Shown piece by piece: positions 11,988 through 61,100 of a stretch of 64,000 nucleotides of DNA. Under the pieces are notes generated by a model. The model saw only the letters and a program-made list of their open reading frames with translations, was not told the DNA's origin and searched no databases. Position 1 is the stretch's first letter. Each line of letters opens with the position of its first letter. Both the position numbers and the translations under genes were made by a program. This DNA comes from Podarcis pityusensis (taxonomy: Eukaryota): the NCBI GenBank assembly GCA_964106645.2, contig OZ067040.1. One strand, 5' to 3'.

Positions 11988-12727
11988 TCAGCTCCCATTG
12001 GTTATTATAACAGATGTCCCCTTATGTCCCTGTGCTGGATCTTGCTGCATCCGTAGATGAGACGTCACATCAAAGTGTGACCCATTGCAACCCAAAGAAT
12101 AGTTCCTGATGGTTTCGCTGTCGTAAAGGTGCTCCAGAGCATATCCTGTTAGCGTGTATGCATGCTTATCAAAGTACTGCCGATGGGAATTGTAATAGTT
12201 TGGGGATTCTGCTGAGCTATCCCCTGGAGTTTGATGAGGCGACACTTCTGACTGAAGGCAGTCCTTAGCCAGTATCAAACTGGATTTAGAAATTCGGTCA
12301 GAATTGGGGCTGCTTATTCTAGACAGTGCCGTGGGGCTGTTGTCATAGTCATTGTCATGGGGGCTCATCATCTTCCCATCTTGTTGCTGCGTGTGTTCGC
12401 AGGGAGATGTGTTGGTGACACTAGGGACCCTGCAGGCATCTCCTCTCAGCTGTTGTTGCTGCTGGTGGTGGTAGCTTGCAAAGCAAACAGAGTGCTTTTT
12501 CCCTGCTCCGTTAATGGAAACCAGCTGATCGGGAGTCGACTTCCGCAACTGCAGCCTGTTTTCTTCTTCTTTAATCATTTGCTGAGTCGCTCTTATGAGA
12601 GTCTCAATTTTGCTGGGCTCGTGTGGGCTGCCCTGATACTGCTCAGAGTGGTATCGGTCACCTGATTCACTAGCAGAACCAGGGTCTGGGGAACTGACAA
12701 CGCTTTCTTCATCCCAGTGCCCTCTTC
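11988..12727 (-). CDS. SIM1: SIM1 terminal coding exon 11 (740 nt including TGA): [15 protein letters not shown]...TSVIITNGS*
   Basis: Within ORF 11988..12761; ttctag|GA; stop codon at 11988-11990. Confidence 0.97.
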
Positions 12728-13334
12728 CTAGAAAGTGGGGTAAAACAAAGGAGAGAAGCAATCAGCAACGGGCTGTACACAGTCAGAGAACAGCAGAACA
12801 TTCAGACCTTATGCACGCCCAGTGGGAATATAACTCTTATAATAACTACAAGTCTTCTGCAACCATGAAATGGTGAAATTAAGCCTCCCCACCACCTGTT
12901 TCTCTGACCTTGTTACCAGTTCACAACACTGAAGTATCAGCAGAAGGGCACAACTGACAGAACTCCCCTGTCACAGTTCAAGTCAGCCTTTGCCAACCTA
13001 GATCTTCTTAGGCTCTAGCAACTTTCAATCCCAGACAGTGTGACCAGTGGTCAGGGATTGTGGAATTTGTAGTTCACAACATCGCACCAAGTTGGGGAAT
13101 TCTGGTTTAGACTCTAGGGCAGTGGGGGGGGGGGAACCTGCAGCTAATGGGTCACTCTAGGCCCACCAAATCAGCTGCCCAATTTGTCCCACAAAGTGAT
13201 TTTTGGCTGGCCATGCCCGCCTGTCACATACACCTGACATCAGGTGTGGAACAGGTAAAGCCACAGCTGCCAAAGAACAAAAAAAAATGCACAGTTTAGA
13301 GTGGACTCCTTGTCATTCTTTTGTTATACTCTTC

Positions 13335-13960: not shown

Positions 13961-14602
13961 AGTGCACTGAATATTGATGGGTAAAATCAGTTTTTCCAAA
14001 TATAATGTATTTTGTTTGTCATTCTCACTAATATCTAGTTTCCAAGAATCTTCTTCTTTTGTGAGATTATGAGGGTGAGCGGTGAGTTTGTTTGGGCTCT
14101 GGGTGAGAGCCAGGAGGCTGAGAGGGAGGTGTATTAGACGGAGAAGACATTGATTTAGGTCTGTATTTATTCACAATTTGCATTAATGTATTATTTGTTT
14201 ATGGAACTGTATTTTTGCAACATTTGATTGTTGTTTAAGTTGCCTGTTGCTGCTACTTTAGTTTTCTACACACGATTTAGAGTTATTTTTATATATTAAG
14301 TGGTACAGAAATTATCTTAAAATTTGGATAAGTGTGAATTTTGAAGGATGGCTGTGTTTTGGTGTTCACACTGTTTTGGAATGTCTGAATTGGATAAATT
14401 CGCCTTTAAATGTGACCCAAACTGAAATTCTCCCCCATCCCTACTTCCAGGTAAGGTGCTAGTCAACAAACAGACCACAGATATCTCCTAACTCCATTGT
14501 TAGCTTCGTAAATGGTCAACTTGAGACCATTCGAGGCAGGCCTTTCAAACCCTGGCTCAATGTTGCTACCACAACCTGCCATCCAGTACATTTACCACTT
14601 AC

Positions 14603-15008
14603 CGTGAATTCGGTGTATGGAAGTTATATGAGGCATGCTGTTTTCATAGGCTTCTCTGCTCTCAGGAGATGATTTGGTTAAGGGAAGGCCAGATCGGGTA
14701 CCCCACCATGTTTCCCTCCCAGACTGCGGTGTGCCAAGGAAGTATCGGCCAGCCTCACACCTGCTGCCTTCACAGGCCTGAGTGTGGAAGTGTCTGTCAT
14801 CAGCCAACCTGGAATGGTCAAGTGCAAAACCATAGCAGAGAGCACTGCGGTCTGAGTATTGTCTATAGGCACAGGAGACATCGTGATGCTGAGAGTTTGG
14901 CCTTTCAATGGGATCCATCAATTGTGGAGAGGCAGTGTCGGTCAGTGGGCTGCCACCCCACTGGCTTTCATGGTCTGATTCAGATCTTTCTGTATGAAAT
15001 CCAGAATA
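14603..15008 (-). CDS. SIM1: SIM1 coding exon 10 (406 nt): [22 protein letters not shown]...[11 protein letters not shown]
   Basis: Within ORF 14592..15014; ttgcag|TAT ... CACG|gtaagt. Confidence 0.97.
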
Positions 15009-16011
15009 CTGCAATACAAAGAAAAAGGGGGAAAGAAGACATTAACAGTGGGATACGGTCTAAGAAGCAATTTGATTTATTGAAAACATGGAACCCATTT
15101 CACAAAACAGAGGAGTTAGAACTGAAGAAGGACTAAGACAAGTTGCATCCATAACTAGGCTGTGAATCAGAATGCCTGCTTTCTCACTGCTACATAACAC
15201 TACAAAGCTTTCTGCATTGAAACTAGCGCTATTTTTCAAGAAAAATAGGTGCCAGAACACATCAAGAATACCTCCCTTGTTCTCTTATAATACCAATGAC
15301 ACCCACCTGAGAAGTGCTGGAACGGAGTTCTGGTGATTTCCAACTGGAAAAAACCCCTGATTGAAATCATTAATGTAAAAGCTATAGAGGTCAAATGGGA
15401 CTGTTTTTGTCTATTCAGCCACAATCCCAATGGCCAAAATCCTTTTAAGACTCCATGAAGAGGCATCAGACCCACTGCCACCTATAGCCCTCTCCATATA
15501 ATCCCATGTTATGCAAGAGCTTTTCACAATAGTGCTGTTGTGTCTAGTGATACTGCTGTAACAGCAACACCCACTCACTCTGCTTTATGGGCTTACTGTG
15601 CCAATATGATGTTTCACTTAAACTCCACAAGCTAAGAAGTTTCCTTCTTAGTTTGATCTCCACCCTTAATACTTATTTGCTGGCTCTCAGGTTTACAAGT
15701 GGCAAATGAAGACACCATTTCCCAAGTGCTTATAGAGGCCAGAAAACTATGTTTGGACAGTCATTTCCCCCTCCTCACCTGCAAACACTTGTTTCTAAGT
15801 TCATTGCTTCCCCAGAATCCACAGCCATGTACTTAAAAGGCTCTTAAGCAGAAGTTTTTTAGGAATCACTGGTATGATGATCACAGTGCAATTCTATGTA
15901 CGTTTACTGAAACACAAGTTCAACTTAGTTCAACAGTAGTATTCATGGCACTTCTAGACTGTCACTATTTTCTAGTGGAATTCAATCACATATTCAGGTT
16001 GTGAAGTTACA

Positions 16012-53484: not shown

Positions 53485-56400
53485 GTTTAGAGAGACGGGG
53501 GAGCATTCCATCAGGTGAGCAGCCTGAAGTGGTACAGCTACTTCAGGAGATGCAACCAGCACCCAACGTTATACGTATATCAGACAGAGTTTCGCTCAGC
53601 AAACACGCTGCAGCACGATCTGCTCTTGAATGTGGACATAGTTCAGCCCTGGACCAAAGGAAGTGGCTGCAGTAGACATCTCGATACCTTCTCAGGTAGT
53701 CAGCCCGCCGTGGGTTTTTCCTAATCTACAGAAGAAAAGCTTGTCACGTTCTTTTTAGCCGAAGAGGCTCGGGCTGAACCTCAGCGGGTTGCGGATCGCG
53801 CGGCCGTGGTCACTCTGTCCTTCCAATTCTCCAGCAACAGTCATATACTTGAGAGCCACTCTCCGTGTCTGTCCTGGTCCCTCAAAAGCTGGACTGAAGC
53901 AACCACCTGTCTTGGCCCCCTCCGACCTCTAGTCTAGCCAAGGCCCCCTAAGAGGCCTCTTCTCTGCTCTACCGCTGAGCCACGGCCCTTGTGCTACAAA
54001 CCAGGCTCGCAGGAGACGGAGGGAATGCGCGTGCAGCCCACCTTGACCTAAACCCAAGTATTGCTTCTTAATTGGATTGTTGTTGATGAGAAAGGAGTTA
54101 CGGAAGGTCCCCCCCCCCTCCTCTCCCCCGTCTCCCTCCCTCCCTTCTACTGAGTGCTTAAATAAAAGTGCTTAAATAATGCCATCTTTCCAGATGGCCT
54201 GATCTGCTTTTACTCTCGACAGCAACAGGAGATTCACGGCTGGCATGCGCGGCACTTTCTGGTTCAGGTTGCCAAGGCGCTTCCAAATTCATCGATCCGG
54301 GTTCACGAGAGACAGAAAGCAGGAACAAGCCCTACTCGGAAGTTAAATCCCACTGAGTTTCTCCCAAGCTAAAGCAACTTCAGTCAGAACTGCAGCTAAA
54401 GCTAAAAGTCCCATGAACCACATTGGATTTCTCCAAGGAGCAGGCAGGCAGTTTTACAGACATTTGGCCGACTGTATCGCTTTCAATCCCAGTCTCTGGG
54501 AAGGGTTTCCCCCCTCGCTTTTTTCTCTGAGGTCAGCGCTCTCGGGTTGACTGTTGAGATTCCTTACAGGAGTGTGTCCCTCGTTTGGAGACAGTTCACC
54601 AAACGAAAACCTGGTCCGAATCCAGGATGGTGGTTGTTTTTATCTCGATCATCCCCACCCCGCCCACCAAGTCTGCCCTGAAACACCCAAGTTTGCGTTT
54701 AAACTGTGCAGTCCTATACATGCCTGCTCAGAACTTTGAGTTCAGTTCCGTGAGACTTACACCCAGCTAAATTCGCGTCTAAGACTGTCGATATAGAGTC
54801 TGGAGCCGTATAGATATGGAGCCAAGGTACCGCCAAGGTCCCACGTGAGGCAGAGGCCTTCTGAGAATGCATTCTGCGCTTCTCGGAAGTTTGCTGATTG
54901 ACTATTTTGCTTATTAATGCTCACATTAAAATTCATAATACGTATTAATCTGTCTCTCCTCCGCTCTGGACTCAGAGGAGAGCAGGAAGAACAACTGTGG
55001 CGCATCTGCTTACTCAGATTCGGCTCAGTCTCCCTGAAGGCTCCAGACGAGGAAGGACTGAGTGGAGTTTGCCACATCCCAGGCTTGGCAGAGGCATGCG
55101 CAGTCTTTGACCCAACCCATTTCCCTCACCACGTGGCGGCCCTTCAGCCTCTTGGTTTGTCGAGGAGACCCTGGTCATCAGGCGGCCATTTCAGCCTGCA
55201 GCTTAGAAAATGAGCACCTTTTAAACCCCCTCAGCAGACACTTCACCACTTTCTCGCTTATTTTAAGGCTTCGAGGATTAATACTAATTCTACCCAGCGA
55301 TATTATCCAGTGTCCTCTCCCCTCCCCAAAAAGAAGGCAGGAAAGCGAAGCGCTTGACTTCGAACTGGGTTGAATTGAAACACACAAATTCGAGTATTCG
55401 AATCCTAGGGGCTGGAGCAACCTCGACAAAATCAGGCATGCCTCCGACACCACCGGCCGGATTATTGGGGAAACTGGGATTATTGAGGAATGCCGCAGTC
55501 CTGTACACATTTAACCGGGCGGAGAGTAAGTCTCATTGGGATTTACTGCTGAGTAGATGTGCATAGGACTGAGCTGTAAATGGCTCGCACACAATCAGAG
55601 GAAAGGGGACTTGGACTGTCAGTCCTTTTAAGCGATTGTTTCAAGGGACCTCAAATTTCCTCGTTTCCGTGTATTTATTTAGGATGGTGTGTGTGTGAGG
55701 GGTGTGTGTGCTCTGATTACTGAGAACAAGAACCAAAGCCCCACACCGAGGAGGCTGACTTTTCACTTCGACAGACCCGGGTTCTGCCATATTTAGGTAT
55801 CCAGTTCACGATATTTATTAACTAACTTTACGCTGGATCGGCTCAGATTCGACCTTACAGAACCATCAGTTGCTAGCGACCTCTACAAAATTTACGACCC
55901 TGCCCATTAAAAAGCACAAATCAGCTCTGTTTACATGCATATAAAAATGTACGCAGAAACAAAGTGCTGTTTGTCTTTAATAATAAGTGGAATCCGGTGG
56001 TTTAATATGCTGTGATTTAAATAATATCAATAAACGGTATATGTGTAAAATGTTTTATCCACACAAACCCCACTGCCACAAGTTTTTAAAAAAGAAAATC
56101 GTTAGGAAGCAGAACAGATATGGATTCATTCAGCCTTGGCAAGCAGAATCGTATTTTACCAGGAAAATAGACAAGTGAAAATAGATGAATCATATGCTCA
56201 CTTACCTGGGGAAAAGTCCCATTAAACTCTATAGTATTGCTCTGTTAATCAGACCCATAAAACGATTCCGTTTTCCATGCTAACCATAACAACAGAGGAG
56301 GGGGGAAATTAACATTTCGTCCTGAAATCCTTGGGGAAGGGGGGTGAGGATGAATTATTTCACCACCTACTAACCTCACGACTGATGAAAATATCTGCAA

Positions 56401-56945
56401 ACATCTTATTAATTAATACCATTACCACCACCACCATCATCATTTTTTTTATTCTGGCGATCGAGGCGGCTTTCCGCGAAGAAATTACGGTTTTTGCCAA
56501 TCAGCCTGACCTCTGCTTTTCTCAGCCATAAATTTGCTTTTGGAGCAGTTATGCCGGGGCTTTCGTTCTGCACTTCACATTTCAAGTCCACATCAAAACT
56601 GGAATCAAACAAAGGGAGGCAGCTTAAAGGCTTTTAAATGAGAAAAACGTCTGTAAGAAAATAAACACTGAAACCCAATGCTCAATCATTTCCCTCAGCA
56701 GCAAGAAAAACAGCATTAAATCACCGATCCACGTGGGAAAGGGGGTTGTTGTTTTTTCTGCCTTTTCTCCCCTTTGTTGTTTTTGTTTTAAATACCGCCT
56801 CCCAACTAAAACAAGGCAATGGATTTCAATACTGAAACGCTAAACGCATTTATTTATTTAACAAAATAGTAGCTGCAAAATTATGGAGTGTAGAACTGTC
56901 GAGCTGCATTGCTAAGCGATTTTGAGTAACCCTAAGCTGAGCGGC

Positions 56946-57297
56946 GGGGGACGCGGGTGGTGCTGTGGGTAAAAGCCTCAGCGCCTAGGGCTTGCCAATC
57001 GAAAGGTCGGCGGTTCGAATCCCCGCGGCGGGGGGCGCTCCCTTGCTCGGTCCCAGTGCCTGCCAACCTAGCAGTTCGAAAGCACCCCCGGGTGCAAGTA
57101 GATAAATAGGGACCGCTTACTAGCGGGAAGGTAAACGGCGTTCCGTGTGCGGCTCTGGCTCGCCAGAGCAGCCTTGTCACGCTGGCCACGTGACCCGGAA
57201 GTGTCTCCGGACAGCGCTGGCCCCCGGCCTCTTGAGTGAGATGGGCGCACAACCCTAAAGTCGGACACGACTGGCCCGTACGGGGCAGGGGTACCTT
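56946..57297 (+). mobile_element. Sauria SINE, full length, divergent subfamily, with 13-bp TSD
   Basis: Head gggacgcgggtggtgctgtggg, B box ggttcgaatcc, tail gtaccttt. Flanked by TAAGCTGAGCGGC (56933-56945) and TAAGCGGAGCGGC (57298-57310). Confidence 0.92.
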
Positions 57298-58088
57298 TAA
57301 GCGGAGCGGCAAGAAGCTGCCGGTGCCTGTTCAAAACGCATGTCCCATTCAGTTTAATGGGGCTTACTGCTTGGTAAGTGGATATAGGATTGCCGCCTGA
57401 TCGCAGCGTCCAGAATCCAACTAGTGATAGATTAACAGTATATATGTTTTCAAAATCCTCGCATTTCCTTATTTTTACTATCAAAAAATGATGTCAAGCG
57501 CCTGTTTAATCCGCCAGTCGGCCCACCCCAATGGAGATGGGATGATTTCAGAAGGAGGGTGTGTGTGTGTTTCTGGTCACGTAGTGCATAACGTACACAT
57601 AGATAAACCCACGCACGCACAATGCACACAAACACAAACCCCACATATATATCTCAAACAATCGGAAAAATAGGAGAACACCGGGTGAGTTGAAATCAAT
57701 GAACATTTTCATAATTATAAATCGACGTGAGAACCGCGCGGAAATTCCCTCCACGCGTTGTTCCTGTTTTAACTTGCACTTTTACTTTTGAAACACCGCA
57801 AAAGAAGTACAGCAACGAAGGTAGCAAGCCCTTTTTCGATTTAAGGCCTGCGGGAAGGATTGCCTACCTCACTCTTGCTGTCGTTAACCTTACAGCTCTT
57901 TTTGAAAACAACAGCAACAAACGATTGTTCTAGAGAAGAAATGAATACTTGGAGGCAAAAACTCTGGACTTTTGGACCGCTATTCTCCTTCCTAGAGGTC
58001 TAATTCTTGTAGCCCTTTTCAGAGAACGGTGCAATCCAGCTCCGTCCAGTCCACACCCGCCCATTCCTCACACATAAACAGCTTTCGT

Positions 58089-58190
58089 TCGTATCTGAAG
58101 AAGTGTGCATGCACACGAAAGCTTATACCAATAACTTAGTTGGTCTCTAAGGTGCTATTGGAAGGATTTTTTTTATTTTTTTATTTTTGT
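58089..58190 (+). mobile_element. Penelope-like retroelement terminal (pLTR) fragment
   Basis: gtatctgaagaagtgtgcatgcacacgaaagcttataccaataacttagttggtctctaaggtgctattggaagg followed by a T-rich run. Resembles squamate Penelope ends as I recall them and carries the hammerhead core typical of Penelope-like elements. Confidence 0.75.
58091..58128 (+). ncRNA. Minimal type I hammerhead ribozyme motif
   Basis: Stem I GUAU/AUAC; CUGAAGA at 58095-58101; bulged A; stem II GUGUG-CAUG-CACAC; GAAA at 58117-58120; palindromic AGCU minimal stem III; NUH = CUU with predicted cleavage after 58124. Confidence 0.75.
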
Positions 58191-61100
58191 TCCCATGTAC
58201 CTGAGTTCTCTCCTCTTGAAAGACAGGTGAAGGGAAAAAATGAATCAAACGCCTCACAGTTTCAGTTGCAATTTTTAAGCAAGACTCCTACTGGAACATA
58301 AAAAAAATAATTACGAAATAAGCGAGAGAAATATCAAGCGCGCACACACAAAAATACCGACAACCAACGAACCTTTCCATCGCAACCAACCGGCAGGCGA
58401 AAACCCGCACTTTGTGTTTCAAGGTTAGCTCTAATATTCGTTCCGCAGACCTCTCGGCGTTGCCTGCGTGAACCCTCCTCTCGACCCCTCTGTCTACCTG
58501 CCCCTCGGACTCGCCAGTCAAAATAGCCGTTTTATGTATTTGGGCAGCTATTTCATGCTTTCCACAAACCAATGTAACCGGGTCTATAGTTAATATCCTA
58601 TTTAAATTACCAAAACTTCACTGAGGGACAGCCCCCATGGCTTCAGTGGAACTTGCTTCTGAAGACACCTCATTCCCCCGTGTTTAAAGCAACGAAGACC
58701 ACTCCCTGGTTTGGGCATCGGTTAAAACGTTTCTAGAAATCTATCCGCTATGGTTTATAAACCCTTCCCTATCTGGAGGACCTGGGCCCTTCGATCTAAT
58801 CTTGCACAGGTGTAAAGCAACAGCTACGTAATAACTGGTGGCCCTCAAGCATCTGAATGCAAACGCTGCTTAGGAAATATTTTAGACAAGAGAGACGAAA
58901 AGACGCGTGGCATGCTCCCAAATCGCTGAGCTGTGTTTCTCTCCTTAAAATATTTTACCAAACTTTAGTAATGTTTGGGGAAACAACAACCGCAACAACA
59001 GCTCTCTACAACAGATGGGGCATGGAAGCAAGACAGGCTTGATGGTCTTCTGCAGCATTTCATTCTGCGAATAATGCAACCCTTACAGCAGGGTTCCTTT
59101 AAAAATGGTTCTGTCGTTCAGCTACTTGGCCTGATTTGGCTCAGCCAAGAGTCCTTCGATCCCTAACAGACGGTCCCCGAACTGGGCGCTGACGTAGAAA
59201 GCCTAGCAAGGCGTCGCCATGGCGTCATTCTCTCGTTTGGCTCCGTCACTCGCTCCGTCACTGCTTGTTTCTGGGGAGGAAGTTAGCCGGCTTCTCACCT
59301 TTAAATGTGCTTTTGTCCTTGGAGGAGAGGAGGGGGTGAGAAGAGGAGGAGGGATGTCCCCCCTCTCCCATTTATTTGTAAAAGGATCAAGGCCAGAGCT
59401 CGTTCATAAACACAGGAAGGCGAAACGGAGTCCTGAATTTGACCTTTGCCCTCCAAACCGGCGTGAATACGAATTCACTTAAGATCTCTGGGGACTCGGA
59501 AGTAGAGAGATGCGGTAGGTTTAGCGAGGTCTGGCATTTCCCTTCCTTGCCTTAACGCAACATCTGGAGAGCTCAGGAAAAGGCAGAAAGCGTCATTCCC
59601 ACCCCCACCCCCCAAAAAGAGAATTGGTGCAAAAATAAATTAATCACCTACTACTGTCTGCGATTGCGTGCCACGGCGCGTCCATTCTCACAACACGCCC
59701 AGACCCGGATCCTAAGCAAATCCCACCCTATTCCGCTGAGCATTTCAGGCCCTATGAAAAATTCGGGAGAGAGGCGATGTATTTGCCTGTCTTCAAGAAC
59801 CAGCCAAGAAAAACAAGTCAAAATCCAGAAACCAGCGGTAGCTCCGCTTTTAAGTGAACCTGCTGGCCTTTGATGTGCTAAGGCTTCGATCCCAAGACGT
59901 AGAGGGAGAGGGAGAGGGAGAGAGAGCGCCCTTAGACCTGGGGAATCTAGTCCTACGTTGTTCAGCCGGGCTAAGTTTGCCAGGCCGCTTTAGATCAGAG
60001 GCCCAGCACAGTTGATGGGTTGCTGATGGTGCCACGTGTACTTCAGAGGAAAGAGATGGCTTGATAATACGGGGGAGGGGGGCGGTGAGCCCGTGGCCCT
60101 CCAACGGCTGCTAGACTCCAGCTCCCATCAGCCCAACGTCCAATAGCCAGAGGTGATGGGAGTTGTCATTTAGGATCTGATTCCCCCATCCCTGCCTTGC
60201 CATAGTAACAATAATGGTTTGGACGCCGCTGGTTTGTTTCTGCGTCTGCTTCTAAAGCTCGCTTTCCTCACCCCACTGCTGTTCTCCTTCCTCGCCTTCC
60301 TTCAAGTGGCAATCCTGAACATGCTCAGTCCGGACCACACACAGATAGATCCTGGGACTCCTTCCACATGGATACAACCATTCCACAAGGCAGCTGTGCC
60401 CGAGACCCTGCTTGGCGCCACTGAAATCGATGGGGCTTCATCTAGGCGGCTAGGCTCAGGCCTGTAGGCCCCGATCCCTACCAACGTGCTTGGAAGAAGT
60501 AAGGAAGACCCTCAGCCGAGTCCGAAGCCCAATTAGCTCTTGCAGGCTAATTCTCTCTGCGCCCCTTTCCCAAAATCAAGATATGCAGTGATTTTAACCA
60601 AAACGCAAGCCATCGCATAAGACGCATTCCCCATAACCCTTCCCTACCTTAGCCCACCCATATAAAGAGGATGGTTGAGGTGGGGGTGGGGAGAAAGAGA
60701 GAGAATGAGGGAGAGAGAAGCGGGTGCGTGCTCAGGAAGAAGTTAAATTCCCCTTGCCTGAGGTGGGATTTATTTCCTAATCGCTGGATTTAGGCTTGCT
60801 GTCTAGTGACTGCAATGGGCTTGGAAGCTCCTGGGTGTCGCGCGGTGCCCAGCACGTTTAAGATCGACCTTAATAATTAAAAAATAAAAAAATAAAAAAT
60901 GTGGAGGGAGCCCACTTCGGGCAAGCACCGGAGCCAAAATCCAGGCCAACCTTAGCCATCCGTAGCTGGAGCTGAACACCTTTCAGTAAGATTTTTATTG
61001 AGATCTCCCCATACGATACAAGAATATCACAGCTGCCTAAGATAGAAAACAAGAAAAAGAAGCAAAAGAGAAAGAGACAACAGAGATAAAGGAAGTCCGA

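Follow-up and report, generated by a model that had tools for sequence, protein, structure and literature searches.

The 64,000-nt window, i.e. the whole stretch of DNA analyzed here, harbors part of a SIM-family gene on the minus strand. Two exons at 12282-12731 and 14598-15032 matched the SIM_C profile and are followed by the bHLH-PAS exons of the gene. Coding exon 2 is located near 42.5 kb, and coding exon 1, for which bHLH-PAS relatives were found, just outside the window (window-equivalent 64021-64195). Due to the positions of these two exons, the hammerhead-bearing copy described below resides within the first coding intron (42574-64000, minus strand; the lower bound is approximate), which continues to window-equivalent 64020. 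The copy lies approximately 5.8 kb into this intron and is antisense to the gene. The genome contains two SIM_C loci, and the host gene is putatively SIM1 rather than SIM2, judged by its exon sequences. Hence, the earlier placement of the motif antisense in the first SIM1 coding intron holds for the gene family, the intron and the orientation, with SIM1 as the putative name. Approximately 800 nt upstream of the hammerhead, a SINE-like element with the boxes of a tRNA-type internal promoter was observed on the plus strand (~56950-57300), which presumably resembles the Sauria SINE of squamates. T-runs are present between this element and the hammerhead.

The hammerhead, a predicted minimal type I motif, occupies 58091-58128 on the plus strand. 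Stem I is formed by GTAT (58091-58094) and ATAC (58125-58128). Between its two halves lie the core CTGAAGA (CUGAAGA in RNA, 58095-58101), stem II (GTGTG at 58103-58107, the loop CATG and CACAC at 58112-58116), GAAA (58117-58120), the palindrome AGCT (58120-58123) and the NUH triplet CTT (58122-58124), with the predicted cut after 58124. All core elements listed in an earlier note on this DNA were recovered at their positions, both in the sequence and by descriptor search. The class proposed there, a minimal type I hammerhead, is likewise supported by the core order (CUGANGA, GAAA, UH), by the G10.1-C11.1 pair closing stem II (G58103-C58116) and by the palindromic positions 15.2-16.2 (AGCT, 58120-58123), stem III being lacking as in the minimal hammerheads (min-HHRs) of Penelope-like elements (PLEs). 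Two details had escaped the note: A9 and G10.1 are separated by an unpaired extra A (58102), and stem II (58103-58116) forms a perfect 14-nt palindrome. An extra base between positions 9 and 10.1 is conserved in PLE min-HHRs (PMC4209133). A relaxed type I descriptor gave a single match on both strands of the 64-kb window, namely this motif, and no match in 40 first-order Markov simulations of 64 kb. The Rfam hammerhead models, an Infernal-type search to which the note had pointed, remained silent at E<=10 within 55000-61000. The ATG of the stem II loop starts a 13-codon frame on the plus strand (58109-58150); in full-length copies of the element, the same ATG opens a 9-codon upstream frame that is out of frame with the main ORF.

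The hammerhead opens a fragment (58091-58191, plus strand) that corresponds to the 3' part of the pLTR of a PLE, putatively of Neptune type. Over 92 nt, the sequence 58091-58178 is 91% identical to the full-length copy L146, and the first 41 nt from 58091 are identical to the L146 pLTR. If element positions are counted from the first G of stem I (+1), this direct arm begins at the 5'-end hot spot of the family and stops at the short 3' end (~+96), its end at ~58191 having been judged by eye from a T-rich stretch. It has neither a tail nor a target-site duplication, and the whole scrap comprises about 110 bases. In the genome, 2,602 exact copies of the 33-nt core (58091-58123) and 7,009 exact copies of a downstream 25-mer were counted, the reversed controls giving 0 in both cases. 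Longer copies of the family extend upstream into a GIY-YIG-like frame (Pfam E 7e-4, below the cut-off). L146 is composed of an inverted pLTR followed by pLTR-ORF-pLTR with a period of 3,010 bp, and both L146 and L147 carry hammerhead-bearing pLTRs in direct and inverted orientation. L146 and L148 each possess a single 921-codon frame in which a reverse transcriptase (RT) with a C-terminal GIY-YIG domain exceeded the Pfam cut-off (in L146, E 3e-12 for RVT_1 and 3e-5 for GIY-YIG); the first in-frame ATG of the full-length element is at +98. Together with the identity to the L146 pLTR, these domains bear out the suggestion of a Penelope-like fragment. An uninterrupted 921-codon frame was seen in five copies among the 150 places listed, including L146:1566-4331 and L148:2461-5223. 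Since several intact frames exist, the family is young and perhaps still mobile.

In a protein of the family (P0001), a CX4CxxC linker finger directly precedes the GIY-YIG domain. Because of this finger, the family falls to Neptune or Nematis and not to Penelope/Poseidon, according to the accessible text of PMC8557442. The evidence points to a Neptune-type PLE, an assignment made by motif alone, with Nematis having the same linker. Poseidon was considered as a candidate and ruled out, as the Penelope/Poseidon clade lacks a linker finger. Among 30 sibling loci, the 3' ends fell at +86..+102 in 14 cases and at +130..+135 in nine, in a tally using a reference cut at +135. The two clusters correspond to tailed and untailed forms, and the window carries the short end. 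Four identical endonuclease matches spaced by ~14.7 kb were noticed elsewhere in the genome (G000:C19:20.67-20.72 Mb, L135-L138), and this putatively is a tandem array or a segmental duplication with a PLE fragment.

Upstream of the direct arm, the nine letters 58080-58088 match 58115-58123 perfectly in reverse complement and thus represent element positions +25..+33 on the minus strand. This perfect complementarity, already reported in the earlier note, was verified. Two junction letters (58089-58090) separate the 9-mer from stem I, and a 4-nt tandem duplication is present at the joint (58085-58088 equals 58089-58092), likely caused by slippage; the same joint minus the two extra letters occurs at 17 loci. 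A 9-nt complement within 30 nt upstream would arise with a naive chance of ~0.003, and the 9-bp inverted pair was not among the 25 longest of a repeat finder. When the genome was searched with a gapped pattern for AGCTTTC 0-6 nt before stem I, 166 loci including the window were found (control 0). In 28 of the first 30 of them, an adjoining inverted arm was scored. The exceptions were L129, whose arm was scored further off, and L132, whose stump was too short to score. Over all 30 loci, the inverted arms had a median length of 106.5 nt, reached at least 100 nt in 23 loci and extended to about +130. Duplications of 11 nt or more flank 16/30 sibling loci (two of these 16 being microsatellite), as compared to a best match of 3 nt at the window. 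Stumps of less than 20 nt were seen in two of the 30 siblings only (L128 and L132), so that the 9-nt stump of the window is unusually short. In L128 and L132, the eight host letters that directly precede the stump are identical, a hint that both insertions hit a common repeat. Among the 29 best siblings, the inverted arm adjoins the direct arm in 11, and five turn at +23..+25 like the window; sibling junctions have GT in common at the turning point. Many inverted arms end within the palindromic stem II. In full-length elements, stem I is preceded by promoter-side family sequence and not by the 9-mer.

According to fold predictions, the 9-mer pairs with the core with a probability of 0.68-0.98, at which stem II forms with ~0.2 and stem I with 0, and the minimum free energy is -12.3 with the 9-bp pairing versus -6.3 kcal/mol for the hammerhead stems. 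In a plus-strand transcript across the locus, the 9-mer would be expected to pair with 58115-58123 and to block the hammerhead fold. For 58089-58140, which does not contain the 9-mer, a stem I probability of 0.89-0.93 was predicted. For +1..+60 without upstream sequence, the value was only 0.058, as a downstream hairpin captures 58127-58128. Two motifs are predicted to pair via the palindromic stem II (-31.2 versus -14.2 kcal/mol for two monomers), which gives no stem III, and no second copy of the element is present in the window and the next 30 kb (94 kb). Single min-HHRs showed no detectable cleavage and dimers cleaved at a low level (PMC4209133), while the hammerhead of an Anolis Poseidon element requires protein for cleavage and is not needed for insertion in vitro (PMC11167929). 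On the predicted folds, the motif, having no stem III and no nearby partner, would be close to inactive even without the 9-mer. A natural lock of the family itself, formed by an upstream pyrimidine tract and the CUGAAG core, was also considered. Upstream family sequence lowered the predicted stem I probability from 0.57-0.90 to 0.006-0.066, but an equal drop occurred in 16-32% of 200 shuffles per test in all five tests, and the idea was therefore rejected.

Contigs of the organisms C (57625-58117) and D (57625-58119) cover unique sequence on the left flank and continue into the hammerhead. Hence, the insertion is older than their split from organism A. In organism B, the contig breaks beside the insertion, and the empty orthologous site that the earlier note had hoped for was not found among B, C and D. 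Organism C differs from the window by seven substitutions and six gap letters, all outside 58075-58117, so that the 9-mer, the junction and the core up to 58117 are unchanged. Such an unchanged stretch is expected by chance about four times in ten (an estimate based on ~10 events in 493 nt); it fits retention, yet does not demonstrate constraint. Between organism D and the window, 26 letters differ and 14 gap letters occur (57625-58119).

With a probability of roughly 90%, the copy is a 5'-truncated scrap of a PLE pLTR whose 9-mer is the scar of an inverted second arm. More precisely, an inverted arm made at insertion has likely left its inner end behind as the 9-mer. The element RT may have been primed at nicked genomic DNA and begun synthesis internally, close to +96, proceeding along the RNA until it reached the 5' end, the first G of stem I. 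A GT microhomology at +23..+25 would then have allowed the 3' end of the cDNA (...AC) to anneal, be it by fold-back onto the same molecule or onto another cDNA whose synthesis had been primed from the opposite strand, resulting in a head-to-head pair of arms. The target-site duplication and ~100 nt at the far end of the inverted arm would have disappeared during insertion or afterwards. The unusually short 9-nt stump and the best duplication of 3 nt weigh against this reading, as such a loss has to be assumed. Inverted 5'-truncated copies and tails of 30-40 bp are standard for PLEs (PMC8557442; PMC3846280), and the RT of an Anolis PLE uses internal start sites, with extension of both strands (PMC11167929), whereby these RT-start data and those on protein-assisted cleavage come from a Poseidon element and the present family has a Neptune-type linker. 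Any inverted arm with its end at the junction necessarily complements the GAAA core. Since the arms of siblings end at the same joint, the apparent lock is simply the look of any inverted arm ending there. Among the origins previously offered for the 9-mer, the remnant of an inverted pLTR is thus favored by the 166 junction loci and the inverted arms in 28 of 30, and microhomology gained partial support from the shared GT. The built-in lock or switch did not withstand the comparison, as the 9-mer is missing from full-length elements, recurs at 166 loci and, in 28 of 30, takes the place where a longer inverted arm has its inner end.

It is conceivable that the 9-mer is host DNA that complements the core by chance and served as landing microhomology for the cDNA end. 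The window indeed has no longer arm and no target-site duplication, and PLE 5' ends joined by microhomology without duplication have been described (PMC3846280). However, the 9-mer stops exactly at the recurrent turning point of the family (+23..+25) and a chance complement so near has the low probability given above, which makes this origin improbable. Less probable still is a switch co-opted by the host, in which the 9-mer would silence the hammerhead within an antisense or enhancer transcript of the SIM intron; once some factor had displaced the 9-mer, the transcript would be cut after 58124. The predicted 9-bp pairing overriding stems I and II, the intact core nucleotides and the orthologous copies in organisms C and D would suit such a device. 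On the other hand, an intact core is common among the 2,602 exact copies, stem I is weak in +1..+60 even without upstream sequence, stem III and a partner within 94 kb are lacking, and the comparison with organism C revealed no excess conservation of core or 9-mer. In an evolved switch, the inhibitory strand should be a conserved part of the RNA and not a by-product. Here, it is absent from full-length elements, and the identical junction at 166 loci is an insertion by-product in 28 of the 30 siblings. That the motif resembles a hammerhead merely by chance would agree with the silence of the Rfam models, but is hardly credible in view of the empty simulations, the 2,602 exact core copies, the position in the pLTR of an RT/GIY-YIG element and the features listed for PLE min-HHRs (PMC4209133). 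The inverted-arm scar remains the preferred reading, and the locus, one of thousands of copies, is ordinary transposon debris with a likely arm stump, a fixed fragment that is probably inert.

The 5' ends of the family were tallied for the first 90 of the 7,009 anchors (L149-L238), which all lie on contig 1 and are not independent, as pairs are counted with each of their arms and a few of the loci are duplicated: 23 copies begin at -5..+4, around the first base of stem I, 33 at +5..+46, ten at -47..-6 and two at the cut site (+33..+37). The pile-up at -5..+4 exceeds the two neighboring spans with binomial p values of 3e-5 and 7e-11. Upstream of stem I, the family sequence contains a CCAAT-like box, a TATA-like box at a distance of ~30 nt and an initiator-like TCAGT, which is readable as a splice acceptor as well. 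A putative TATA box plus initiator has been noted in a rotifer pLTR (PMC3846280), and the internal promoter of Drosophila Penelope is TATA-less (PMC2377424). We infer that copies like that of the window are complete copies of the RNA 5' tip and not products of self-cleavage. A wider proposal, tentative and rather doubtful, is that the short copies record the 5' end of the element RNA at the first base of stem I, that the hammerhead is an off-switch at the mRNA tip and that locks arise by re-annealing. In this case, the hammerhead would lie at the capped end of the mRNA, ~30 nt behind the TATA box, and would not make the insertion template, since hardly any copies start at the cut site. Its cleavage would remove the cap and the first 34 nt, constituting a protein-triggered off-switch of the element transcript, and head-to-head pLTRs, hence locks, would result from renewed annealing of the completed cDNA end to the GT-rich palindrome of stem II.

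At position -1 of copies starting at stem I, a hand count of the first 100 of 1,898 matches gave 67 G, 20 A and 13 C (p 6e-14), and G was present in 36 of the 58 non-promoter copies among 60 fetched (L239-L298). At loci enriched for lock junctions, the distribution was G16/A9/C20, and copies starting at -2 were preceded by T in 85/100 (hand count). The G excess fits cap copying. An untemplated cap-derived G as a mark of the 5' end is unproven, however, as the -1 base is often inside the duplication: in solo copies with a duplication of at least 8 nt, this applied to 6/10, and a single extra G was found in 1/10. At several junctions, parts of the initial 5-12 nt of the element are repeated, which suggests stutter of the RT at the template end. 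In the accessible parts of the literature searched, no description of a 5'-end hot spot at the hammerhead was found.

The locus itself, one of thousands of copies, is of little consequence, and the family pattern of 5' ends matters more. As a warning, every PLE inserted head-to-head will look as if its hammerhead carried an antisense switch. The function of PLE hammerheads and the origin of inverted pLTRs are treated as open questions in the available text of PMC4209133, PMC11167929 and PMC3846280, and the thousands of junctions in this genome allow both to be tested by counting.

By its sequence, the predicted hammerhead is a further instance of the known PLE min-HHRs, which have been reported for turtle and snakes (PMC4209133). 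With the metazoan motifs of Cervera and De la Pena (2014, PMC4209133), as far as the accessible text describes them, it shares the short 4-bp stem I, the long stem II, the unpaired base between 9 and 10.1, G10.1-C11.1, the palindromic 15.2-16.2, the location in pLTRs, the occurrence mostly as single copies from truncated elements and the close pairs on opposite strands. It differs by the 9-nt inverted-arm stump directly upstream and by the perfect 14-nt palindrome of stem II, a feature not found discussed in the available part of that paper. PLE insertions without target-site duplication have been described (PMC3846280). Compared to the Neptune EN+ PLEs of Craig et al. (2021, PMC8557442), the window has only ~100 nt of pLTR and no coding part. 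PAc, the Poseidon element of Anolis carolinensis (Frangieh et al. 2024, PMC11167929), is likewise a lizard PLE with a pLTR hammerhead and, compared by description, two 3' ends ~35-40 nt apart. The PAc ORF begins at stem II, whereas the first in-frame ATG of the present family is at +98, and the family has the linker finger that Penelope/Poseidon elements lack. The vertebrate non-LTR retrozymes (bioRxiv 10.64898/2026.07.22.740005) also carry a type I hammerhead related to those of PLE pLTRs. These retrozymes form tandem arrays with one hammerhead per unit, whereas the window contains a single dispersed fragment, one in 94 kb.
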